NCBI GenBank assembly: GCA_037140515.1 | Contig: JBAXEI010000005.1 | Span: 1 to 49,252 of the forward strand | Direction of reading: 5' to 3' | Source of the DNA: Candidatus Berkelbacteria bacterium | Lineage (GTDB): Bacteria; Patescibacteriota; UBA1384; XYA2-FULL-43-10; 1-14-0-10-43-13 | Length of the DNA: 49,252 nt | Part shown: positions 7,215 to 43,143 of the stretch, piece after piece | Layout of the letters: each line of letters begins with the position of its first letter | How positions within the stretch are numbered: the first letter of the stretch is position 1 | Position numbers and translations under genes: made by a program | Notes under the pieces: model-generated | What the model saw: the letters and a program-made list of their open reading frames with translations, nothing else | Database searches by the model: none | What the model was told of the DNA's origin: nothing

Positions 7215-10200
7215 CTAGTTGCTCTCAACTTTGTCTTTACCTACGAGGTCTTTTGTTTTATGAATTAGCACTGGGTCAATATTCACTTTGTTCTTGATTT
7301 TGATCTCTTTAGTCCCGCGAAGCCCATCGGGCGAAGTGGGGTCGGTTCCAATAAGAAGCACGACTGACGATTCGCCAGGGTGCTCGACGAGTATATCTTT
7401 GAGATCGACTAAATGCTCCTTGCTCCAGCCGGCAGGAATAGTGATTCTCAAAGTTTTCGGTCCAACGTTATAAACAGGCACATTGTTAGCGTTTGATGTC
7501 GCGCCAGAAGACGCTCCGCTGCCATTTCCGCCATTATTTCCACCTGACTGCCCATTCTTGTTGCCCCAGCCACCAAATCGGTTAGCGCGGCGCTTGTCCT
7601 TCGCGACGAAGGCCGGTATCTCAGCGGTATCAGTGATCTCATATAGTGCCTCAGAGACGATCTTGAGTGCGCCATCTTTGTAGCTGACGAAGCCATCTAC
7701 GCAAATGATCTTGTCAGGAGCGAGCCAAGTACAGTTTTCAAGTATTTTCGGAAAAACGAGTACCTCGGCTTTGCCCTGAAGGTCTTCAATCTTGGCGAAA
7801 ACCATATTTTGATTCGCTTTTGTCATAATTTTTTGCAAAGTAGTAATAACACCAGCGACACGAATATATTGGTTTTCATGCTCAGTATGGATTTCATTTA
7901 TCTTGATTGAACGATATTTCTCAAGCAAATTGCCAATATCAGCCAAAGGATGCTCAGAGATGTACATACCGAGAAGCTCGCGCTCCCACGAGAGAATTTG
8001 CTTTTTATCGGCGGGCTTCACTTCATCGAGTGTGATTGTCGCATGTTCAATTGTATTATCGTCGCCAAAAAGCGAATCCTGATTATTTTGTAGCATCTTG
8101 TGCATCGTGCTAGCAAAATTTAGTATTTTTTCACTGTTAAATATTACTGCGTTCCGCTCGACGAAGTCAGAAAGAGCGCCAGCCATTGCGAGGGACTCGA
8201 GTGCCTTTTTATTGATGACTTTGCTAGATAAACGAAGTAGAAAATCACGGAAATCCTTGAACGGTCCATTTATTTTCCGATCCTCGACGATCTCTTCTGC
8301 GACCGCCGTACCCACATTTTTAATAGCAGAAAGGCCAAAGCGAATATTCCCAGTCTCTTTCACTACACCGAAGTCGACAAATGATTCATTGATCGACGGG
8401 GCCATAACCTCGATTTTCATACGATTACACTCATCAATCTCGATTGCGAGCTTGTCCAAATCATCTTTGTTCGAAGTCATAAGCGCGGCCATAAACTCAG
8501 ATGGGTAATGCGCCTTAAGGTAGGCAGTTTGATAAGCGATAAGTGCGTAGCAGGCAGCATGTGATTTATTGAAAGCGTATTGTGCGAAATCTTGCATTGC
8601 GCTGTAGAGATCCTCGGCGATTTTCTGACTAACGCCATTTTTGATACAGCCTTCGACAAACTCGCGCCCCATCTTCTCCATGAGCTCTTTGATCTTCTTA
8701 CCCATTGCCTTACGCAGAGTATCAGCTTGGCCTCCTGTGAAACCCGCCATATCCTTACTCATTTGCATAACCTGCTCCTGATAGACAATAATACCATATG
8801 TATTGCCGAGAGCGGCTTCCATCTTCGGGTGGGCAAAAGTTACTGCTTCGCGACCGTGTTTTCTGGCAACAAAAGAATCTATCCATTGCATAGGACCTGG
8901 ACGATAGAGGGCTACCATCGCGATAATGTCTTCAAATACAGTTGGTTTGAGCTCTTTTAGATATCGTCGCATGCCATCACTTTCCAACTGAAAGATGCCA
9001 GTTGTGAAGCCTTTTGTTAGAAGCTGATATGAAGGCTTGTCGTCCATTGGGATCTTGGCAATATCAATATCAATTCCGCGTGTTTTCTTGATAATTGATA
9101 GGGCGTTCTGAATAATGGTTAAGTTTGAAAGCCCCAGAAAGTCCATTTTCAATAGGCCGAGGTGCTCGATAGGATTCATTGAATACTGCGTCACAGTCGA
9201 AATATCGCCTTTTTGTGCTTCTTGTACGGGACAGTATTGAACTATTGGTTCTTTGGAGATCACGACACCAGCCGCGTGTGTTGAAGCGTGGCGAACAACG
9301 CCTTCAAGCTTCTTTGCGATGTCGATACACTGCTTCACGTTTGCATCAGAATCGTAGAGCGATTTGAGCTCAGCAATATTATCAAGCGACTCCTGCAGGC
9401 CCATGCCCTGAGGAATTAGTTTCGCGATCGTATCCACTTCAGAATATGTAAGTCCAAGAACACGACCGACGTCCCGAACAGCCATTCTAGCTGCCATCGT
9501 ACCAAAGGTAATAATCTGAGCAACGCGATCCTTGCCGTATTTCTCCGTCACGTATTGAATTACCTCACTTCTACGAGAGTCAGCGAAGTCCATATCAATA
9601 TCAGGCATTGAAATACGATCTGGATTCAAGAAACGTTCGAAAAGGAGGCCAAAGGGGAGCGGATCGAGCTCAGTAATATTAAATGCATAGCAGATGATTG
9701 AGCCGGCTCCTGAGCCACGACCAGGTCCTACCGCGATTCCCTGATCTTTTGCCCACTGTACATAGTCAGCCACGATTAGAAGATAGCCCTGATAGCCCAT
9801 TTTTTCGATCACGCTAAATTCATATTTGTAGCGTTCCCAAAGCTCAGGGGTGAGATAGAGTTCCTCGGGTGTAGGTTCTTTGCCTTTTGTAATATCGTCG
9901 ATAGTAATTTTTTGGGTACCATAGCGGTTGTTCAGGCCAAGATAACACTTTGTTCGAAACCAGCTTTCGAGATTATAGCCCTCTGGTACCTCAAAATCAG
10001 GAATCAGAATTCCGCCAAGCTCGATCTTTACGTTGCATTTTTCGGCAATTTCCAGTGTATTGGCCATCACCTCTGGATGATCTGGAAAATTATTGAACAT
10101 TTGTTCTCGAGTGAGAAGAGAATAGTCGTCGCCCATCATGCCCATTCGGTTCGTATCAGAGACCTGTTTGCCGATCTGCAGGCAGAGAAGCGCATCTTGT

Positions 10201-35462: not shown

Positions 35463-35760
35463 CGCCACTAACTGATATTTAATTTGACCTCAAAATCCGT
35501 TCTTCTCCGTTGCATAAACGGGTCTTTTTTGGTATGAATATCGCAGATTATCGGAGGAGGAAAGAGTAGCGGCAGAAGAAAAGGGCGGCACAAGTGTCGC
35601 GAGAACGAAGTCCAGTCGGTCTGATAAGGCCAAAAACAGGCATTCGACTTTCAACCAAATCGAACTTCGCCTAAGAACAGGCGATGGGAAAGTCGACTCC
35701 AAGCTCATTCATGATTCATTCAGAGGTGAGCTGATCAATGAGGAACAAGCGTATCTGCTT

Positions 35761-36357
35761 ATGCGGAGATATGCTGAAAAGATTGAGGTTCACACCATTG
35801 AGGTGTTTACCGACTTGCTGACTGGAGTCGGTACAAGCAAGGTTATGTCGAGAGCGCTTGAGTTGCTATATCGAGATTTTCGGCTCAAGCGGCCGCAAAA
35901 GCCAAATGACCCGACCTGTGCACGGCTCATTTTCTTTGACATGGATGGCCTTAGTTATTTAAACAACAAGTATGGCCATGCAGTCGGTGACCTTGCCCTC
36001 AAGACATTGGCGGAGGGGATCCGAAACTCTCTAAGGGGCGCGGATTTGGTAACCAGAGAGACCAAGGGCGGAGATGAATTTAGAGCACTGATCAAGGCTC
36101 TGTCACCAGATATTCTTGATCTGGCCTATGAACGACTTGAACGGAATGTTCATCAGGGCTTCAAGATGACCTTCAGTTATGTTGATCCCACAGATGGCAT
36201 CACAAAAACCGAAAGCTATCTCGTGACCGCTGGCATCGGGTATGCCGATGTCTCAAGGGAGACAGTGGACACCATTACGGCCAGAGAGCTGACACACTTT
36301 GCAGACATGGCCTGTAATCAAGACAAAGAAGACAGAGGCAAGCGCAGAAAACCATGA
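35761..36357 (+). CDS. GGDEF domain protein (diguanylate cyclase-like); start uncertain
   Basis: TDLLTG, DMDG, NNKYGHAVGD, GGDEF. The frame is open upstream to 35518. Confidence 0.85.
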   Translation: MRRYAEKIEVHTIEVFTDLLTGVGTSKVMSRALELLYRDFRLKRPQKPNDPTCARLIFFDMDGLSYLNNKYGHAVGDLALKTLAEGIRNSLRGADLVTRETKGGDEFRALIKALSPDILDLAYERLERNVHQGFKMTFSYVDPTDGITKTESYLVTAGIGYADVSRETVDTITARELTHFADMACNQDKEDRGKRRKP

Positions 36358-36367
36358 CAATAGTCCG

Positions 36368-36402
36368 ACCGCCCTAGTGTTTCGACACTTCGGCGGTTTT
36401 TT
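36368..36402 (+). terminator. Intrinsic terminator
   Basis: ACCGCC..AGTGT-TTCG-ACACT..GGCGGT followed by a T-run. Confidence 0.7.
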
Positions 36403-36425
36403 ATTATAGATATTGCAGATAAATG

Positions 36426-37184
36426 TTAGTCTTTGGCAAGCTCCCAGAGCATCTCGAAGAGCTGTTTTTCACCATTTGCGAGGGTTGAGCTCTCGATGAC
36501 GGTGGCGAATGGCTCTTTCACAGAGTGAGCAAGGTAGACTATCATATCGCCAAATATCATCATTTCATGTGCTGCGAACTCGTATTTGTCTTGTGGTAAA
36601 AACTTTGTGGTAATACTCTGCTTTGACAGCTCGCGGTTCAGAAAATCACGACATTCCGGTGTGTCTGGGTAGAGAAGCCGAGTTGGAATACCATGCTTGA
36701 CTCTATTCGCGGCAAATTCGTTTAGAAATTCCTCATATTCTTTTTCCATAATCAAACTCGCATAGACCTTGAGCTCAGTTCCTCTCGGTTGAAGCAAGAC
36801 AAGATTGCAGGCCTCTTTTACCCCTTCAACGCCAGAATACTGGCGTATATTTGGCTTCTCGGTCGATTTGCTCGCTATAGCTTCGAGTTCAGTGGCAACT
36901 TGCAGAGCACGCTTGTGTCTGCGCTCCTCATATTGCATCAGCTGCTTCGTGGAAGCGACGGTGTAGAGCACACGTTTGCCGTCATTTGTGCTCGAAGCAA
37001 GGCCACGCCACATTAGCTCTTCGAGGAGAACATAGCAGGTTGGCCGCTTCACACCGCTCTTTTTGCTTATATCCCAAATCGAAGAAGCCCCTAGCTCCAG
37101 GTTGGCTAGGTAGACAGCTGCTTGGTTTTCGGAGAGCCCCATACTCTCCAAAGCCCTCAAGATTTCATCGTTTTGTGTAGTCAT
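36426..37184 (-). CDS. TrmB-family transcriptional regulator (module 1)
   Basis: MGLSENQAAVYLANLELG...ISKKSGVKRPTCY winged HTH; C-terminal effector-like domain. Confidence 0.88.
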   Translation of the reverse strand: MTTQNDEILRALESMGLSENQAAVYLANLELGASSIWDISKKSGVKRPTCYVLLEELMWRGLASSTNDGKRVLYTVASTKQLMQYEERRHKRALQVATELEAIASKSTEKPNIRQYSGVEGVKEACNLVLLQPRGTELKVYASLIMEKEYEEFLNEFAANRVKHGIPTRLLYPDTPECRDFLNRELSKQSITTKFLPQDKYEFAAHEMMIFGDMIVYLAHSVKEPFATVIESSTLANGEKQLFEMLWELAKD

Positions 37185-37286
37185 AATTATTGACAGTAAT
37201 ATATCGCACATTTAGATAATTGTCAAATCTGAGATCAAAAATGCAAAGAAACGCACAAAATTTACGTAAAAACATTGTCATAATTG

Positions 37287-37315
37287 TTGACGTTTTGGTC
37301 GCGACGTGTTAGAAT
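37287..37315 (+). promoter_or_regulatory. sigma70 promoter of module 1 cargo operon
   Basis: TTGACG-17 nt-TAGAAT with extended TG. Confidence 0.75.
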
Positions 37316-37321
37316 ATGCTT

Positions 37322-37402
37322 GTCACAGTGAGAGACCGATAAGGCGACTTACAGTGAAGACGAGGTGCAGATGCAAAATGGCATCGACCTCAGGAGAAAG
37401 AA
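37322..37402 (+). promoter_or_regulatory. Conserved structured 5' leader (copy A)
   Basis: Highly similar to 39796-39876; its 3' hairpin recurs at 37866 and 38498. Confidence 0.75.
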
Positions 37403-37777
37403 ATGGCAAAGATAGAGACAATCAAAATACAGGGAAAAAAACCAGAAGTATACAAGAATATCGTTTCCATCGTTGATACTGAGTATGACTTTTGGCAAAT
37501 TATCCCAACAAAAGAAATCGACGACCTCGATTTGTGCGCAATAGTGCGTCTCATGCCCGCTGGAAGTGATAGGAAGGGCAAGCTCGACGTGATTAGATTG
37601 GATGCGGCTAAGGAACTGGCTAGGCGCTTAGGACACGAATTAGTCTTGTCCGAAACCTATGCTACAGAAGAAGAGCGTAGCGCAAATTACCGAGCACTGG
37701 GATCGAGAGAGACTCTCGAGTGGTCAGACTTCAGGCATGGTACGCCTTGGTATAGGAACGCAAATTTTGCTCGATAA
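37403..37777 (+). CDS. Hypothetical protein
   Basis: RBS AGGAG; 124 aa. Confidence 0.8.
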   Translation: MAKIETIKIQGKKPEVYKNIVSIVDTEYDFWQIIPTKEIDDLDLCAIVRLMPAGSDRKGKLDVIRLDAAKELARRLGHELVLSETYATEEERSANYRALGSRETLEWSDFRHGTPWYRNANFAR

Positions 37778-37810
37778 TGAGCATTCACCCTCGCACCCTA
37801 AAAAGTGCGA

Positions 37811-37855
37811 GGCAACCTCGAGTCATTAATTACAAATTGATGACTAGAGCGTTGA
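37811..37855 (+). repeat. Intergenic hairpin repeat (copy 1)
   Basis: GGCAACCTCGAGTCATTAATTACAAATTGATGACTAGAGCGTTGA. Confidence 0.85.
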
Positions 37856-37906
37856 AAAACGCAATGAGGTGCAGGTACAGAATGGTACCGGCCTCAGGAG
37901 AAAGAA

Positions 37907-38347
37907 ATGATTAATTGGCTGAAAAAGGTCCTTGGCGTCAAAGAAAACAAAATCGTCGTTCAGGAAGAGATTGTTATCGAAGAAATCGAAATAATAAGTG
38001 AAGAAAAGCAGGAAGCAATCAATTTCTTCACACTCATTTTTGAGCAAGCAGCTTCAAAAGCGACTGATCCTAGCGATCAGGAATACTGCAAAGATGTTGC
38101 AAAGCTATTGATGAGAATCTATGGCCTTTTAAAGGCAAGGAGAGAAGGAGTCATAGAAATCTGGGGCAATCCTAGCACAACGCTAGGTGGGTTCTACTGG
38201 GCAAGGCTGATGGAGGAGCAGCAGCATGTTGCGCTTAGTTCATATGCCAGAATGGTTACTGACAAAGAGATGAGCATAGTGTGTGAAGGGATTCAACCAG
38301 CCTTAATCAGAGTAGTAAAACATAATCAAACCCCCGCTCAAGAATGA
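37907..38347 (+). CDS. Hypothetical protein
   Basis: RBS AGGAG; 146 aa. Confidence 0.8.
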   Translation: MINWLKKVLGVKENKIVVQEEIVIEEIEIISEEKQEAINFFTLIFEQAASKATDPSDQEYCKDVAKLLMRIYGLLKARREGVIEIWGNPSTTLGGFYWARLMEEQQHVALSSYARMVTDKEMSIVCEGIQPALIRVVKHNQTPAQE

Positions 38348-38351
38348 GCGG

Positions 38352-38397
38352 GGCAACCTCGAGTCATTAATTACAAAATTGATGGCTAGAGCGTTGA
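38352..38397 (+). repeat. Intergenic hairpin repeat (copy 2)
   Basis: GGCAACCTCGAGTCATTAATTACAAAATTGATGGCTAGAGCGTTGA. Confidence 0.85.
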
Positions 38398-38538
38398 GAA
38401 AATTTAATATAGGCGCTTGACCTAAAGAAAAACGAGCCGTGTCACCCGTAAGGTGAGCCATGGAAGCAGATCCACAGGTAATTTCGAGATTACCAATAAG
38501 GTGCAGGCATAAATTGATGCCGGCCTAAGGAGTCAGAA

Positions 38539-38844
38539 ATGACTAACGAAAACATCATCACCATTACATATAGAACCGAACATGGTTGTAGAATGGAATG
38601 GTCTGACATGGCGGGACCGCAGAGAGTCGCCCCCAAACATTCAGGCGAAAAAGTTGAGATCATCGGCAATGAAGTTCGACTTATCGACTGGCAATACGCC
38701 GGAGGCCCAGACAAAGGCTGGTCGCCTATAAACATGGGCGAATTGACTACTTATAAAGCTGAGAGCGTAAATTGCGGAGACAATTCTGTGTATTTCGTTC
38801 GCAACGGAGTTAGCTACGCGATAACTGGCCTTCGAAAAATTTGA
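38539..38844 (+). CDS. Hypothetical protein
   Basis: RBS AAGGAG; 101 aa. Confidence 0.75.
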   Translation: MTNENIITITYRTEHGCRMEWSDMAGPQRVAPKHSGEKVEIIGNEVRLIDWQYAGGPDKGWSPINMGELTTYKAESVNCGDNSVYFVRNGVSYAITGLRKI

Positions 38845-38852
38845 GCTCATCG

Positions 38853-38883
38853 TCCCTCACTATTAATTTGGTGGGGGATTTTT
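38853..38883 (+). terminator. Intrinsic terminator of module 1
   Basis: TCCCTCACTA/TGGTGGGGGA followed by TTTTT. Confidence 0.65.
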
Positions 38884-38887
38884 GTAT

Positions 38888-39649
38888 TCACTTGTTTGCG
38901 ATCTGCCAGAGCATCTCGAAGCGCTGCCTCTCAGCGAGTGCAAATGCGCGTGATTCGATCAAGAGTGCATACGGCTCACTCTCGCCAGGAGCAGTAAAGG
39001 TGAGGATATTGCCGAAAATGCACGTTTCTGAGTGAATGTCCTGATAATCAGTCTCGGGCAAGAAACGGATGTCTCTGATCTCGTCGGCGTTATCGCGCGC
39101 CAAGATTTTTCGATGCTCAGGCGTGTCGCTATATAGTAAACGTATATGTATATTATGTTTTTTTCTTTTCTCAGTGAACTCTTGGTAGAAAATCGGGTCT
39201 GCGAAGAAGATCGTGCTGCCATAAACCAAGATCTCGGTGCCTTTTGGCTCTAGAAATACTAGATTGAGCGCTTCTTCTATACCCTTTTTGCCTATGAATT
39301 GACGGACAGAAGGCTTGCTCACCTCAGAATTTGCCAGCGCTTCGAGCTCGTTGAACGTGCCAACCACCTTCTTATGTCGGCGCTCTTCGATCTGCATAAG
39401 CTGTTTCGGGGAAGCGACTGAATAAATGATGCGTTTGCCATCGTTTGAGCTCGAGGCGAATCCTCTGATTGAGAGAACTTCGAGAATATCATAACAAGTC
39501 GGCCGTTTGATGCCGCTCTTTTGGCTTATATCCCAGATAGACGTGGCACCTAGTTCTAGGTTTGCCAAATAGACCTTCACCTCATTGTTTGTGAGGCCAA
39601 GGCTCTGGAGGGCCAAGGATAAATTTTCGTTGTTTAGTGTAGTCGCCAT
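38888..39649 (-). CDS. TrmB-family transcriptional regulator (module 2)
   Basis: Paralog of 36426..37184: YLANLELGATSIWDISQKSGIKRPTCY. Confidence 0.88.
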   Translation of the reverse strand: MATTLNNENLSLALQSLGLTNNEVKVYLANLELGATSIWDISQKSGIKRPTCYDILEVLSIRGFASSSNDGKRIIYSVASPKQLMQIEERRHKKVVGTFNELEALANSEVSKPSVRQFIGKKGIEEALNLVFLEPKGTEILVYGSTIFFADPIFYQEFTEKRKKHNIHIRLLYSDTPEHRKILARDNADEIRDIRFLPETDYQDIHSETCIFGNILTFTAPGESEPYALLIESRAFALAERQRFEMLWQIANK

Positions 39650-39761
39650 TACCGACACATCATATAAAATATTGTACAAAAAGTCAATACATATGCATAT
39701 TTTGATCTCAAATATAACTCTTTTCGTATAGCAAGCAAGGACAATGCTACTGTCGGTAGTA

Positions 39762-39790
39762 TTGACAAAATAGGTAGGAAGTGTTACAAT
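39762..39790 (+). promoter_or_regulatory. sigma70 promoter of module 2 cargo operon
   Basis: TTGACA-17 nt-TACAAT with extended TG. Confidence 0.8.
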
Positions 39791-39795
39791 GGCTA

Positions 39796-39876
39796 GTCAC
39801 GATGAGAGACCGATAAGGCGACTCAAAGTGAAGATGAGGTGCAGGTACAAAATGGTACCGACCTTGGAGACAACAA
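39796..39876 (+). promoter_or_regulatory. Conserved structured 5' leader (copy D)
   Basis: Highly similar to 37322-37402. Confidence 0.75.
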
Positions 39877-40659
39877 ATGAATACTTATAGACCAATGAAT
39901 GATGAGAACAAAGAATTTCTCAACTATGTCATCGCGATGTACAAAGGCCAAGAGGACGATTCTTGCTTTGATGCAACAGGCGAAATCGTTGTTGATTTGC
40001 CGGGCTTGCCTGGCTTCATAGTTAAAAAATTCGTCTATAGCCCACCACATGTAAATGTGGCTATGGCTCATCCCAAAACCATCGCAGCTCGGCTGCAGGG
40101 GAAATCATTTCTTGAGATTGGCACTGGAACCGGAATCTGTGGTGTATATGTTGCTCTTCATGGGCAGCCGTCACATGTCACAGTGACAGATATCAGTCCA
40201 TTAGCTGTCGCAAATGCGCAAGCAAATGCAGTTCGTTATGAGCTCAGTGAGCCAAACTTTCGAGTGATCGAAAGCGACGTTTATTCGGCGCTTACGGCAG
40301 GACAGAAATTTGATTGTATGTTTTGGAATTTCCCTTGGAATGCACAGGATAAGTCTGTAGAAGACACCTTGATTGAAAAAGGTATTGAAGTCACTCCAGA
40401 ACGTGTCTGGCAATTACGAGCGGGGCTCGACCAACAGTACAAAGGGCTTTGCACCTTCATTCGTGAAGGGAAAGAGCACTTAAATGCTGATGGCGAAATT
40501 CTGCTCGGTGCTGGGACTCCGTCTCGGCACGACATCATCTTTGGCGAAGCCAAAAGATGGGGTTATAACATCGAGGTAATTTCTCGCCAGGCTATGGAAA
40601 TAGACAAAATTGGCAACATGCTGTGTGAGACGATCCTCTACCGTCTCACCGTAAAATAA
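39877..40659 (+). CDS. Class I SAM-dependent methyltransferase (HemK/MTS-like)
   Basis: LEIGTGTG, VTDIS, SDVY, FDCMFWNFPW. Confidence 0.88.
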   Translation: MNTYRPMNDENKEFLNYVIAMYKGQEDDSCFDATGEIVVDLPGLPGFIVKKFVYSPPHVNVAMAHPKTIAARLQGKSFLEIGTGTGICGVYVALHGQPSHVTVTDISPLAVANAQANAVRYELSEPNFRVIESDVYSALTAGQKFDCMFWNFPWNAQDKSVEDTLIEKGIEVTPERVWQLRAGLDQQYKGLCTFIREGKEHLNADGEILLGAGTPSRHDIIFGEAKRWGYNIEVISRQAMEIDKIGNMLCETILYRLTVK

Positions 40660-40747
40660 GAAAACTCTGGATCAAACATGAGGTTTGATCCACCTTTCCT
40701 TGCTTCGCAATAGTGCGGAGCAAAGACGAGGTCCTTAGGAGATCGAA

Positions 40748-41272
40748 ATGAGAACATTAATTTTAGCCGCTGCGCTTCTCATCGCAGCATTCACCGCATC
40801 AGCTTTCGGCACCGTCGAAGTTGAAGCTGGACTCGCCAATGGTGGCGAAACAATCCGTTTCTATCAGGCGACACCGCCGAATAAGAATGGGTTCGGGACT
40901 TTCGGTTTCGCCGTGATTAGCAAATTCTATTCACAGGCATACGCAGGCGCAACCTATAGCCCAAACCAGCACATCTGGCTGGAACTGGGGTACGGATTAG
41001 AATCAGTTCCAGGCAACAGTGGAAGAATCGGCGGAACAGCCATTCTATCCTCAGGCCAATTCAGTTTAGTCCACTGCCAAGAGAGTGGCGGGTCAGGTAA
41101 TTTCAACAAGACAGTTCTTAATTACCAAATCAGCCCAAAAGTCACCCTCGGTGTCGTTGACGACAAATTCAACGGCACCGGCCCAAAAGTCGAGTATAAG
41201 CTCGATGGGTACGTTATCCGCTTTGTTGCTTTCCCTGACAAACCATGCTTGTCAGTTATAAAAAGCTTCTAA
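40748..41272 (+). CDS. Exported beta-strand-rich hypothetical protein
   Basis: Signal peptide, alternating Gly/aromatic strands, terminal Phe. Confidence 0.75.
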   Translation: MRTLILAAALLIAAFTASAFGTVEVEAGLANGGETIRFYQATPPNKNGFGTFGFAVISKFYSQAYAGATYSPNQHIWLELGYGLESVPGNSGRIGGTAILSSGQFSLVHCQESGGSGNFNKTVLNYQISPKVTLGVVDDKFNGTGPKVEYKLDGYVIRFVAFPDKPCLSVIKSF

Positions 41273-41280
41273 GCACATCT

Positions 41281-41313
41281 AGGACCGTCTGATTCATTTC
41301 AGCGGTCCTTTTT
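41281..41313 (+). terminator. Intrinsic terminator of module 2
   Basis: AGGACCG(T)CTGA/TCAGCGGTCCT followed by a T-run. Confidence 0.7.
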
Positions 41314-43143
41314 CTATTTCAAAATCTCAGACAGCTTATCTCTACCTATCACATGCAGCTCTTTGATTGCGCGAGTGAGGGCGACATAGATCAGATCTTT
41401 GTTTATTTTAATATTTTCTTCTACAAGCCCTGCTGGCAGATCATCACTATCAGTATCTGCATAATCTTTGCGAGAAACATCGGCGAGGACAACGATGTCA
41501 AACTCTACCCCCTGCGCCTCTCTGATGGTCATTACATGCACTTTTTCATCATCTTCAAACTCTTCATCAAACAGAGCTAACTTCTCGTCATCCTTGAGCA
41601 GGACACCCATCGTGCCGAAGTGCTTTGTAGCTATCAAATTTCGAATATATTTGAACTCAAGAAATGTGTCGAGATCGCCAACTTCAGAGACTGGCTCACC
41701 GACAGCAATTTCCTTGGGAATTGTGATCTTGTAGTCGAGATTTTCGATAAAATGTAATATATTTTGGGTATTTCTATAAACTTTGTGCATAATGACTTTG
41801 CGCTCAGCAGAGATGTTTTCGTTGATATCAGCAAAGTCGCGTAGTGTGCCAATTCGTACCTGCTGAGCGAGATCACCGACATAGATCATCGACTTCAGTT
41901 GCTGGTTTAGGCAAAATTTCATGAGCTTCAGCTGTTCTGGCAGATAGTTTTGAAATTCATCGACTAGAATCAGAGAGTATTTGAGAGCAATCGGTCCACG
42001 TTTCTTCTTATACTGACCGTTTTTCTGCTCGATGTAGTAATCTTGGACAATCTGCAAGATGCCGTCTTGCTGTTTCTTCGCCATCAACAAGATAGTGAGA
42101 TCAATCCGATCATAGATATTATTCTTTTTTTGATCCTGAAAAATCTTCTTTTGATAGTGATTCAAAAAAGGAGAGTAGATCAATTCTAGAAGTTCAAAGC
42201 CAGATTTTGCCGGTAATTCACTCTTGATTTCCCGCAAGGCCTCGATCTTCGCATATTCATAATGATCTTTTTCGATCTCAGAGTGTCCAATTCTCGCCGA
42301 AAAGCTCCCCCTGAGCTCAAGGATAGAGAAAGCCCAGTCAGAATAAGTTGTGATCAGGACGTCGTCGATACCAAGTGAGGGCAGGAGGCTCGAGAAATAT
42401 TCTTTTGTGCCAGTATCTTGGACAAATACAATTATTTTCTCGCTGCTATATGTGTCGATGAGGTCGGGAGATTGGAGAAGAAAGGCGATGCGGTGCAGAG
42501 CAAGCGTGGTCTTGCCACTTCCAGCTGGTCCTGAGATCAAGAAAGGCCCTAAGTGATTGGCACGGATTACGACGTCCTGGCTTTTTTCCATCTCAGCAAC
42601 AATCTCTGGCAGCATGAAGCCAGACTTTCGATCAGAAAAGTATTCCTGATATATTAGCTCACGAGGAGAACCTATGCTCTCAGTCGAGAGGAACTTGATC
42701 TCCTTATTTGAGATTAGGTATTGGTCCTTTTCTTCGAGATCGAGATATTCCATCTCGCCGTCTGGGCGCAAGTATGAGACTGGGCCTGGATCGTCAAATC
42801 TGATCTCGGCAGCTGGCGTTACCCAAGAGTATATACCATCTTCGCTGCTGCCAAATTTGCCAAACTTCAAGACACTTTTTTCCTTTGTCTGGATATTTGT
42901 GACTTCGCAACGGATAAAAAATGGTGAATTTTTCAGATACTCGAGCTCGGAGAAGCGTTTGAGATTTTGTTTCGTAATCTCGTTTTGGAACATTTTGCCT
43001 TCGCTGTCCTTCTTTTTGAAGGTTTCCTTGCTCTTCTCGATTTGAATCTCGACAAGATCCTGCTTCTTTTCTAGGACATCGCAAACTCGAGCGACTTGCT
43101 CTTTCGCTTTGTTGAGGATTTCATCTTTTTGTGCTTGATTCAT
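41314..43143 (-). CDS. HelD-like SF1/UvrD-family ATPase
   Basis: GPAGSGKTTLALHRIAFLL, VDEFQ, VGDLAQ, QGVEFD, YVALTRA. Confidence 0.85.
   Translation of the reverse strand: MNQAQKDEILNKAKEQVARVCDVLEKKQDLVEIQIEKSKETFKKKDSEGKMFQNEITKQNLKRFSELEYLKNSPFFIRCEVTNIQTKEKSVLKFGKFGSSEDGIYSWVTPAAEIRFDDPGPVSYLRPDGEMEYLDLEEKDQYLISNKEIKFLSTESIGSPRELIYQEYFSDRKSGFMLPEIVAEMEKSQDVVIRANHLGPFLISGPAGSGKTTLALHRIAFLLQSPDLIDTYSSEKIIVFVQDTGTKEYFSSLLPSLGIDDVLITTYSDWAFSILELRGSFSARIGHSEIEKDHYEYAKIEALREIKSELPAKSGFELLELIYSPFLNHYQKKIFQDQKKNNIYDRIDLTILLMAKKQQDGILQIVQDYYIEQKNGQYKKKRGPIALKYSLILVDEFQNYLPEQLKLMKFCLNQQLKSMIYVGDLAQQVRIGTLRDFADINENISAERKVIMHKVYRNTQNILHFIENLDYKITIPKEIAVGEPVSEVGDLDTFLEFKYIRNLIATKHFGTMGVLLKDDEKLALFDEEFEDDEKVHVMTIREAQGVEFDIVVLADVSRKDYADTDSDDLPAGLVEENIKINKDLIYVALTRAIKELHVIGRDKLSEILK

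Follow-up and report, generated by a model that had tools for sequence, protein, structure and literature searches.

Uncultivated bacteria with small genomes are thought to be poor in regulatory RNA and to have little room for accessory genes. Regarding the described systems that come closest to the locus reported here, cggR-gapA and the aprE and ermC 5' stabilisers of Bacillus subtilis are hairpin-guided or hairpin-stabilised systems of the RNase Y type. In integrons, the attC site is folded, and it is the bottom strand, with respect to the cassette genes, that recombines. The coat-protein operators of phages such as MS2 and PP7 are small hairpins at the ribosome-binding site that have a short loop and, on the 5' strand, one or more bulged purines; the start region is itself part of the operator, and the coat protein that binds it is known. 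T4-type phages are reported to carry PeSL (promoter-early stem-loop) cassettes, in which a sigma-70 promoter is combined with a terminator stem-loop (PMC2839356, PMC4122927). In the sae mRNA of Staphylococcus aureus, a double-stranded element lying 6 nt downstream is reported to determine the RNase Y cleavage, and the fragment downstream of the cut is stabilised (PMC5449607). RNase J1 is reported to be blocked by ribosomes that initiate at a strong Shine-Dalgarno (SD) sequence (PMC5737220).

The window, that is, the whole stretch of 49,252 nt analysed here, contains a repeated hairpin, H, with a lower and an upper stem of 5 bp each, a G-Y-A/G internal loop between them and an apical loop, 10-11 pairs in total (the internal loop is possibly one C-G pair between two bulges). 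A previous sequence-only reading had placed four copies with starts at 37362, 37866, 38498 and 39836, and both our reading of the sequence and an exact pattern search bear this out: the pattern matched four times in the window, always on the + strand (at 37363, 37867, 38499 and 39837), and never in 100 dinucleotide shuffles of it. Including the first base, the copies span 37362-37391, 37866-37895, 38498-38527 and 39836-39865, and they score 68.6, 66.8, 57 and 58.9 bits respectively with R2, our covariance model of H. As had been claimed, all four start 41 nt before an ATG (at 37403, 37907, 38539 and 39877) and adjoin a GGAG-type SD; the GGAG comes 1-2 nt after the hairpin, and in general the SD begins 1-3 nt past the base of H. 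The distances from H to the SD and to the ATG are fixed. Two further exact copies were found on contig C24 of the same genome. Furthermore, positions 40721-40750 (+ strand; 20.5 bits and E 0.0016 with the R1 model, and alignment), before the ORF at 40748, retain the outer arms and the SD and have no inner part, and from these remains they are a probable deletion relic of H. The genome holds six or seven copies, confined to two loci, C5 and C24.

Regarding the helices, the inner stems that had been read from the four copies (GATGC/GCATC, GGTAC/GTACC, GGCAT/ATGCC and GGTAC/GTACC) were correct, and the compensation between their arms was confirmed. In the six aligned copies of the own genome the inner helix was 100% paired, with four of its five pairs changed on both sides; over all of H, 98.3% of the cells were paired and the covariation score was matched by none of 500 shuffles. 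Nine copies from four genera showed compensatory changes in eight of the ten pairs, including four of the five in the outer stem. The largest alignment comprised 16 distinct copies, some of the own genome and the others from five contigs of lake metagenomes and from three further genera of the family: 95.0% of the cells were paired, eight of the ten pairs were compensatory and again none of 500 shuffles matched the score. The slid-partner controls for these alignments (6, 9 and 16 copies) were only 24-50% paired. The wobble pairs show that the sense strand is the one that folds, with six G-U-type versus zero A-C-type cells in H and 18 versus three in the long hairpin I described below, and this asymmetry points to RNA. 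Judged by these alignments, H is a real, evolutionarily maintained RNA structure.

Rfam 15, searched with the whole window at gathering thresholds, returned only four tRNAs and no match to H, and the region 37200-40000 searched at E<=10 gave two unrelated weak hits (17.3 and 15.1 bits), neither of them on H. The suggestion of an unrecognised structured motif thus stands, since H has no Rfam match, both helices covary and the transcribed strand folds.

A different explanation is that H is a functionless passenger in a locally duplicated intergenic segment that has been homogenised by gene conversion. The confinement of the own-genome copies to two loci would agree with this, as would the flanks of the copies, which are alike too, in three context types, and the presence of one copy per genome in other genera. 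However, in four genera and in many strains compensatory changes have preserved the two helices, and H is kept before orthologous porin-like genes in genomes G006 and G012 with new outer stems. Besides, H is identical at 30 of 30 positions in two strain-level relatives, whereas the adjoining regulator gene is only 85-86% identical. This perfect identity between strains could reflect gene conversion among copies rather than selection. Nevertheless, a passenger is already disfavoured by the covariation of the aligned copies, and we regard it as improbable.

The internal loop GCA/G had been described as invariant. This is true for the four copies of the window but not over the 16 distinct copies, in which the first G, the G facing the loop and the closing G-C pair are constant, while the middle position may be either C or U and A occupies the third with one exception. 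Such fixed bases between two covarying stems, together with the fixed spacing to the SD and ATG, would suit an operator for a dedicated RNA-binding repressor or activator of translation that reads the internal loop and co-regulates all the H genes. The layout of lower stem, purine bulges on the 5' strand, upper stem and 6-nt loop also resembles the coat-protein operators. However, the operons yielded no candidate for such an RNA-binding protein, the neighbouring proteins belong to no family, and the TrmB-like proteins linked to H come from a family of DNA-binding proteins. Moreover, the apical loop in G006 and G012 is quite unlike that of the other copies, and there is no evident common function among the H-bearing genes. 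We therefore consider an operator rather unlikely as the explanation of H, although it is compatible with the adaptor explanation given below and could form a further layer on top of it.

Several other candidates for H were tried and rejected. A kink-turn, which has a 3-nt bulge and then tandem sheared G-A/A-G pairs, does not fit the internal loop, because the would-be conserved A varies to a G that pairs with U and there is no G-A/A-G tandem (inspection of alignments A4 and A7). A preQ1-like pseudoknot was discarded since no part of the loop was seen by eye to complement the tail downstream and Rfam was blank. Mimicry of the SD or anti-SD by the outer stem was dismissed as well: the 5' arm is SD-like in the own genus but not in G006, G007 and G012, so this is not a conserved feature of H. 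Neither is H a palindromic TrmB-like operator, as its stems covary without fixed bases, the intra-operon copies are far from promoters and the element is asymmetric.

When the leader and H were folded together we obtained z = -3.7, and the region 37775-37912 folded into three distinct hairpins and left the SD unpaired (z = -6.1). These folds also bear on the idea of H as a small sensor that gates access to the SD, be it a riboswitch that binds a ligand or an RNA thermometer. H does adjoin the SD and has a small conserved internal loop, but the SD is outside the hairpin and predicted to be unpaired, and by eye the loop had no apparent alternative partner in the tail downstream. In addition, Rfam gave no riboswitch family even at E<=10 and the downstream genes are functionally unrelated. 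A sensor is thus very improbable.

The H copies of the window are found in two operons, each of them divergent from a gene for a TrmB-like regulator. The regulator gene beside operon 1 (36426-37211, - strand) codes for 261 aa (Pfam TrmB HTH, E 1.1e-11) and the one beside operon 2 (38888-39679, - strand) for 263 aa (E 2.5e-13), and the two proteins are 52% identical. This regulator family reaches as many as 13 copies per genome in the relatives, with a genome of 1.1 Mb, and it is in operons divergent from these expanded genes that the intergenic blocks containing H sit. Operon 1 has a sigma-70-type promoter at 37287-37315 (+ strand) with 10 of 12 consensus positions, a 17-nt spacer and a TG before the -10 box; that of operon 2, at 39762-39790 (+ strand), has 11 of 12 consensus positions and also the TG. 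At the predicted transcript start lies a 5' stem-loop, L (37322-37359, + strand, MFE fold), with a second copy in the leader of operon 2 (39796-39833, + strand). Its closing helices are retained in nine leaders from six genomes or contigs, with inserts of variable length and one compensatory pair.

Behind the H copies of operon 1 there are ORFs of 124 aa (37403-37777), 146 aa (37907-38347) and 101 aa (38539-38844), all on the + strand and without a known family. Copy 4 precedes an ORF of 260 aa (39877-40659, + strand) for a SAM-dependent methyltransferase (Pfam MTS, E 5.3e-12; NCBIfam HemK-like, below the cut-offs), the sole Pfam family among the four H-headed proteins of the window. That these four proteins are dissimilar, as the sequence-only reading had it, agrees with an all-against-all blastp, in which no pair reached E<1e-3. 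The relic is followed by an ORF of 174 aa (40748-41272, + strand) of a secreted porin-like family (blastp, alignment A9 and fold), with homologs at E 1e-9 to 5e-17; the same family follows H in other genera.

Rather than standing alone, H is the last module, on the 3' side, of a larger block that is repeated between genes and in which a gene-specific GC hairpin, T, is followed by the long covarying hairpin I, an A-rich linker, H and the SD, with an optional extra element. In the first block, T (37789-37812, + strand) is GC-rich, has no U tract, was not called as a + strand terminator and abuts I in the predicted fold; I itself (37813-37859, + strand) is a long imperfect hairpin with an A-rich tail, scoring 70.4 bits with the R3 model. 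In the second block, T was predicted at 38332-38353 (+ strand, fold) and I lies at 38354-38401 (+ strand, 69.4 bits with R3), and between I and H there is a conserved extra element of about 95 nt (38405-38497, + strand). This element is also present on C24 and in the metagenome locus L184 (blastn, 86-90% identity); a multi-hairpin fold is predicted for it and it has no Rfam match. Regarding I, 12 of its 18 pairs showed compensatory changes in a 10-copy alignment; a Xer/dif-type site was considered for it and rejected because its arm and spacer lengths, and also its covariation, are at odds with a dif site. The only + strand promoters of the operons are those at 37287 and 39762, and no promoter-like site was found between I and H or within T, I or H. 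Real terminators occur only at the operon ends (that of operon 1, an intrinsic hairpin with a T tract, at 38852-38886, + strand), and no T tract follows T or I. Thus, the blocks lie inside transcripts.

The genome codes for RNase Y (644 bits), RNase J (553 bits) and RNase III (126 bits), and RNase E/G was not found in this 94.9%-complete genome; the decay machinery is of the Bacillus type. The two enzymes required by the class of RNase Y-guiding elements and 5' stabilisers, RNase Y and RNase J, are therefore present according to the genome search. We infer, at roughly even odds, that H is an adaptor for mRNA processing, stability and translation in an organism with RNases Y, J and III, in which the repeated modules double as recombination points. 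Long transcripts would be cut at I or the linker, or close to them: either RNase Y would be directed there by the neighbouring structure, or RNase III would cleave inside I. T and I would then cap the 3' end of the upstream fragment and H the new 5' end of the downstream one, where H and a ribosome on the adjacent strong SD would block the 5'-to-3' exonuclease RNase J. The outcome would be an insulated, stable and translatable mRNA for each gene, irrespective of its neighbours. Since the blocks from I to the SD are about 100 nt long and 85-95% alike, we propose that they may also act as sites of homologous recombination by which genes are swapped, inserted or deleted, and this would give the look of a cassette format with a standard head. 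However, a plain exonuclease roadblock needs neither an invariant internal loop nor an invariant closing G-C pair, which hints at specific recognition. Furthermore, H copies 1 and 4 follow a leader with a 5'-terminal stem-loop, so a second protective hairpin seems redundant there.

Regarding the distribution, H heads at least 11 unrelated gene groups in the own genus, and the gene content after H differs between strains. In the other genera H occurs once per genome, before a clear porin-like secreted protein in two of the three genera. Therefore, its spread to unrelated genes is specific to the own lineage. The R2 model found no match in 19 of the 23 family genomes, and several I-to-gene junctions have no H, two observations that speak against the adaptor reading. 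The exact pattern gave two matches outside the own genome among 100 relatives, neither of which can form the hairpin, as judged by eye. An overly degenerate pattern, with at least 120 chance matches in unrelated, mostly high-GC genomes, was set aside. Weak R1 matches in G086, G008, G022 and G019 were rejected because mainly the SD and start region were aligned or the inner stem was absent, and the other weak R1 and R2 matches were left out on score alone (the weak set as a whole had E values of 0.004-1). In viral contigs, where at least 120 stretches matched, none of the 80 loci listed reached the R2 scores of true copies (the best had 25 bits versus at least 38), although this is not evidence of absence.

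The region is listed in 12 sequencing runs, all of them of lake-water DNA. Gene content differs in the metagenome loci L184, L186 and L188 and in contigs from the sequencing runs. In L188 a segment of 7.4 kb replaces positions 37405-38886, one break falling at the ATG that follows H and the other at the end of the operon. In L186 a leader of the C24 type is joined directly to H and the third C24 gene. The lake-metagenome contigs also show H copy 1 behind an I module, other genes after H copies 1 and 2, and new compensated stem variants of H. The notion of H as the standard head of a cassette format is thus right in that H heads genes exchanged between strains, but this head is not universal, as several genes with an I module lack it. 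It is possible, though doubtful, that T-I-H is an undescribed cassette format of this uncultivated family with its tiny genomes, made of portable expression adaptors by which any gene of unknown function, once inserted, would be processed, stabilised and translated independently. Recombination between the adaptors would make TrmB-controlled operons the strain-specific swap sites, and the invariant internal loop of H would in addition be read by a dedicated factor. In the literature on Patescibacteria with TrmB, or on integrons or attC in Patescibacteria, we found no prior description.

This exchange also raises the question of a DNA recombination site, that is, H or the I-H block folding in single-stranded DNA and being cut by a site-specific or HUH-type recombinase, with the genes as mobile cassettes. 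The content behind H and between I modules is strain-variable with junctions at the module borders, the genes between modules are promoterless, I is an attC-like, long imperfect palindrome at each gene's 3' end and a RAYT-like Y1 transposase gene is present in the genome. Nevertheless, no integron integrase was found: the only PF00589 gene in the 94.9%-complete genome is Xer-like (XerD 253 bits, XerC 250 bits) and reaches 122 bits on the integron-integrase model TIGR02249, whose cut-off is 265. The I triplet at the would-be attC core differs in three of the 10 aligned copies; pairing is kept in two of them (copy 2 of C24 and copy 2 of L184), and in the third (G006) one pair is kept and one broken. 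The sense strand is the one that folds according to the wobble asymmetry, whereas the active strand of integrons is the bottom one. The RAYT-like gene scores 67 bits, below the cut-off of 80, and no H-like or I-like inverted repeat was found beside it. With only six or seven H copies per genome, and with a fixed spacing to the SD and ATG that would be purposeless for a DNA element, we find such a site very improbable.

The locus shows, in a lake bacterium with a small genome, covarying mRNA structures that are specific to the family and have no Rfam entry, TrmB-like regulators that are markedly expanded and tied to these structures, and an exchange between strains of genes without known function, located precisely at the structured modules. 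If the adaptor explanation is true, the modules would be a natural plug-and-play insulator for operon genes, relevant to RNA decay outside the model Firmicutes and to the turnover of accessory genes in reduced genomes, and they would offer a compact part for the design of synthetic operons.

Compared with the known systems, integrons share with this locus the small promoterless genes behind one promoter, a palindrome after each gene and the strain-variable content. However, they have an invariant core triplet and use the bottom strand, while the I triplet varies and its sense strand folds, and attC has no fixed spacing to the start codon, whereas H stands at the 5' head with a fixed one. REP and REPIN elements are, like H, short imperfect intergenic palindromes, often within operons, that can affect mRNA stability, and their RAYT partner has a sub-threshold counterpart in this genome. 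Nevertheless, REP/RAYT systems consist of many dispersed copies, and H has few, with fixed orientation and SD distance. Unlike the MS2 and PP7 operators, H leaves the SD outside the hairpin.

PeSL is similar in that short repeated structured modules lie beside small genes without known function within variable regions, and in that recombination between these modules accounts for the insertions, deletions and replacements by which close relatives differ. In contrast, T, I and H are modules without promoter or terminator inside operons, and they belong to a cellular genome and not to phages (H was in none of the 80 viral loci among the matches listed). Sites cut by RNase Y beside a guiding or stabilising hairpin, such as that of saePQRS in S. 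aureus (PMC5449607), resemble H in being intercistronic, with a stable hairpin after a single-stranded A-rich stretch and a strong SD next to it. The sae guide element has 24 bp versus the 10-11 pairs of H, a difference that speaks against the adaptor reading, and cleavage at H is only proposed. The bacterium studied here has RNase Y and RNase J, and RNase E was not found in its 94.9%-complete genome. The RNase Y sites are single and gene-specific, whereas H is a repeated family with an invariant internal loop, common to unrelated genes.

The four hairpins described by the sequence-only reading (hereafter H), which start at 37362, 37866, 38498 and 39836, were confirmed when we read 37200-40100, and an exact pattern search recovered all of them on the forward strand (37363, 37867, 38499 and 39837) and nothing in 100 shuffles. 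In the four cases the ATG lies 41 nt after the start of H, as had been claimed, GGAG follows the hairpin within 1-2 nt, and the ORFs opened encode 124, 146, 101 and 260 aa. The four proteins are mutually dissimilar (no blastp pair at E<1e-3); for three of them neither Pfam nor NCBIfam gave a family, and the 260-aa one is a SAM methyltransferase. Regarding known RNA families, Rfam 15 returned only four tRNAs over the whole window at gathering thresholds, and at E<=10 the hairpins had no match in 37200-40000. The scan was extended to the rest of the genome (1.17 Mb, 112 contigs, 42.6% GC, 94.9% completeness, the window being its contig C5), where two more exact copies were found on contig C24, both with new stem variants and one with a loop 1 nt shorter. 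Furthermore, an apparent deletion relic of H lies at 40721-40750 before a porin-like gene, with the outer arms and the SD kept and around 19 inner bases missing; the same relic is found in the lake-metagenome locus L188.

The sequence-only reading had left room for a simple local duplication, to be recognised by a lack of further copies and of covariation in homologs; actually, both were found. In the six copies of this genome 98.3% of the cells were paired, 4 of the 5 pairs of the inner helix were changed on both sides, and the covariation score was reached by none of 500 shuffles. The six copies were used to build a covariance model, which, run against 100 relatives (all with genomes of 0.5-1.5 Mb), gave a single strong match, in G007 (same family, different genus, E 1.6e-8), and the loci obtained via the linked regulator gene added G006 (E 1.7e-5) and G012 (E 0.086). 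In these three genomes of other genera the outer stem is rebuilt from other bases, with the internal loop and the closing G-C pair retained. Over nine H sequences, 8 of the 10 pairs showed compensatory change and 95.6% of the cells were paired.

With a refined model, strong matches were found in 4 of the 23 family genomes and weak ones (E 0.09-0.36) in 5 others, which were left out on their scores, and the 44 genomes of the order gave H in the same 4 genomes only. The sequencing runs that hold the region are lake-water metagenomes, and one exact-pattern scan of metagenome contigs gave six loci, namely one chance match and five close relatives (L184-L188, of which L187 is a duplicate of L185), in which the refined model found nine strong copies and the relic. 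The pooled alignment of 17 copies (16 distinct) was 95.0% paired, with 8 of 10 pairs compensatory, although it was fitted to the model and is thus biased toward structure; slid-partner controls (26-47% paired) and an independent MAFFT alignment agree with the structure. Its score was also reached by 0 of 500 shuffles, and since the relatives are few and kin to one another, such shuffle results should not be read as probabilities. H has 6 pairs of the G-U type and I, the long imperfect hairpin described below, has 18, against 0 and 3 cells, respectively, of the A-C type, which would be wobbles on the opposite strand; therefore, it is the sense strand of the genes that folds, an indication of RNA. 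We regard H as a structured mRNA motif that is new, and we assign it to no named family.

When the genes downstream of H were listed, 17 copies had an ORF, one of which leaves its contig, and the others formed at least 11 mutually dissimilar groups, mostly without a Pfam family. Two H operons end in SAM methyltransferases. One family of signal-peptide proteins of around 170 aa (pairwise blastp E 1e-9 to 2e-80) is found behind H in G006, G012, C24 (6384-6896 of its locus L001) and L186, as well as behind the relic in the window (40748-41272), with homologs in L195-L198. With the C24 member as query, the family was found in 4 of the 23 family genomes (G000, to which the window belongs, G006, G012 and G017). 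The gene behind H in G007 also encodes a signal-peptide protein, whose similarity to the family falls short of significance (E 0.2-0.9). The most economical history has H starting out as the leader hairpin of this family and, in the window's genus, later spreading to other genes.

The structure predicted for the family from a 7-sequence alignment is a 12-strand beta-barrel (pLDDT 84.4, pTM 0.74), which in structure comes closest to the KdgM and NanC porins (E 3.7e-6, TM 0.61). Yet Omp85/BamA and LpxC were not found in the 94.9%-complete genome; the predicted secreted porin-like barrel, with the usual outer-membrane assembly genes lacking, might act in the membrane of a partner.

We aligned the upstream flanks and compared the intergenic segments with the genome by blastn, and three recurring contexts of H emerged. 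In context (a), H stands behind a promoter and a leader of around 38 nt that folds as a 5'-terminal stem-loop. The sigma-70-type promoters are at 37287-37315 and 39762-39790 on the forward strand, and the leader stem-loops, at 37322-37359 and 39796-39833, lie directly 3' of the -10 box. Nine leaders from six genomes and contigs retain the two closing helices, with one compensatory pair, inserts of 0 to around 45 nt and an apical part of around 12 to 60 nt. The genes of the TrmB-like regulators (36426-37211 and 38888-39679) lie on the strand opposite to the operons, and many such regulators are head-to-head with an operon whose transcript begins with the same leader motif; the conserved leader could be an RNA element or an operator of these regulators. 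The regulators, of around 260 aa, have matches in 16 of the 23 family genomes, up to 13 in the 1.1-Mb G007 and 8 in G011, a strong expansion in this small-genome family (loci L144-L173 besides the window genes). Regulator 1 adjoins a 198-aa GGDEF-domain protein (35761-36357, E 7.3e-16), an unusual gene for a genome this small to carry.

In context (b), between genes, the ORF is followed by a GC-rich, gene-specific hairpin (T) without a T tract, the abutting I, an A-rich tail and H; one such block (37775-37912) folds into three hairpins that leave the SD unpaired (z = -6.1). In context (c), also between genes, an extra conserved element of around 95 nt (38405-38497) separates I from H. This element recurs on C24 and in L184 with 86-90% identity, is predicted to form several hairpins and had no Rfam match; one portion resembles a promoter-plus-leader region in shortened form. 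I also covaries, with compensatory change in 12 of its 18 predicted pairs over ten copies. Its model matched 7 of the 23 family genomes (G000 five times, G007 four, G006 three, G012 two, and G013, G014 and G021 once each) and, at E<=0.001, 8 of 101 relatives, all but one within the family; a GC hairpin abuts I in every newly found case. No promoter-like site was seen between I and H, and true terminators, made of a hairpin and a T tract, were found only where an operon ends (38852-38886 for operon 1 and, by reading, just 3' of 41272 after operon 2).

The proposal that H is the standard head of a gene cassette holds in that H heads the genes that are exchanged, yet H is optional: several I modules lead to the SD directly, or to another small hairpin and then the SD, without H. 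Cassette content does differ between strains, in L184, L186, L188 and the lake-run contigs. L188 is 99% identical to the window over 38886-41367 and 88% over 35507-37405, and between these stretches 7.4 kb replaces 1.48 kb, from the ATG after the first H to the operon terminator. The replacement starts with a 169-aa gene, followed by a T-I block whose I loop carries an insertion of around 57 nt, then H and a 77-aa gene; next come a T-I block lacking H, a 119-aa gene and its terminator, and lastly a separate gene of 1911 aa. In the 1911-aa protein (L188 2561-8296, reverse strand) an ABC1 kinase-like domain was recognised, along with a weak match to M48 peptidases, and a direct repeat of around 25 nt (8800-8900) spans the start of the 119-aa gene preceding it. 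L184 has the leader and H of copy 1, then the same first gene as L188 and two further H-headed genes. L186 joins a C24-type leader straight to a copy-1-type H and a homolog of the third C24 gene, without the first two. L184 and L188 have H identical at 30/30 positions and the leader at 39/40, and the adjacent regulator gene is 84.7-85.9% identical.

Contigs from four lake-water DNA runs, which probably come from related samples, also break at module borders. Their loose ends and joints place an I tail before H copy 1, put other genes behind the SD at copies 1 and 2 (one a homolog of the second C24 gene) and add more compensated stem variants; the junctions are mostly single contigs of depth 3-20, each alone weakly supported. 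Given the length and similarity of the I-linker-H-SD blocks, homologous recombination from one block to another suffices to account for the shuffling.

As for the role, genes for RNase J, RNase III and RNase Y are all present, with scores above their cut-offs (553, 126 and 644 bits, respectively), and RNase E/G was not found in this 94.9%-complete genome; the decay machinery is of the Bacillus type. In such decay, according to PMC5737220 and PMC3997798, endonucleolytic cuts by RNase Y make 5' ends accessible to RNase J, and RNA is shielded by 5'-proximal hairpins and by ribosomes at a strong SD. In S. aureus, an RNase Y cut is reported to be placed 6 nt upstream by a double-stranded element, with the downstream fragment stabilised (PMC5449607). 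The T-I-H anatomy fits a punctuation role, whose steps we infer: T and I would be 3' caps, I possibly an RNase III substrate as well, the A-rich linker would be the cut site, and H would be a 5' cap that also leaves the SD free. A simple roadblock does not account for the invariant internal loop, and a specific binder, or a specific nuclease determinant, may be involved.

Kink-turns and small riboswitches were also considered, and H fits neither. REP/RAYT elements were rejected too: a RAYT-like Y1 (HUH) transposase gene (219 aa, contig C34 906-1565, locus L190) scores 67 bits against a cut-off of 80, and no repeats akin to H or I were seen in its flanks. The likeness to integrons is one of array logic only: no integron integrase is found in the genome, whose sole tyrosine recombinase is Xer-like, the triplet of I that would correspond to the core varies, and here it is the sense strand that folds. 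The evolutionary behaviour is like that of PeSL cassettes, between which recombination has been shown in T4-type phages (PMC2839356), although the module here has neither promoter nor terminator and this is not a phage. Thus, we file the T-I-H block as a new form of regulatory-cassette-mediated shuffling.
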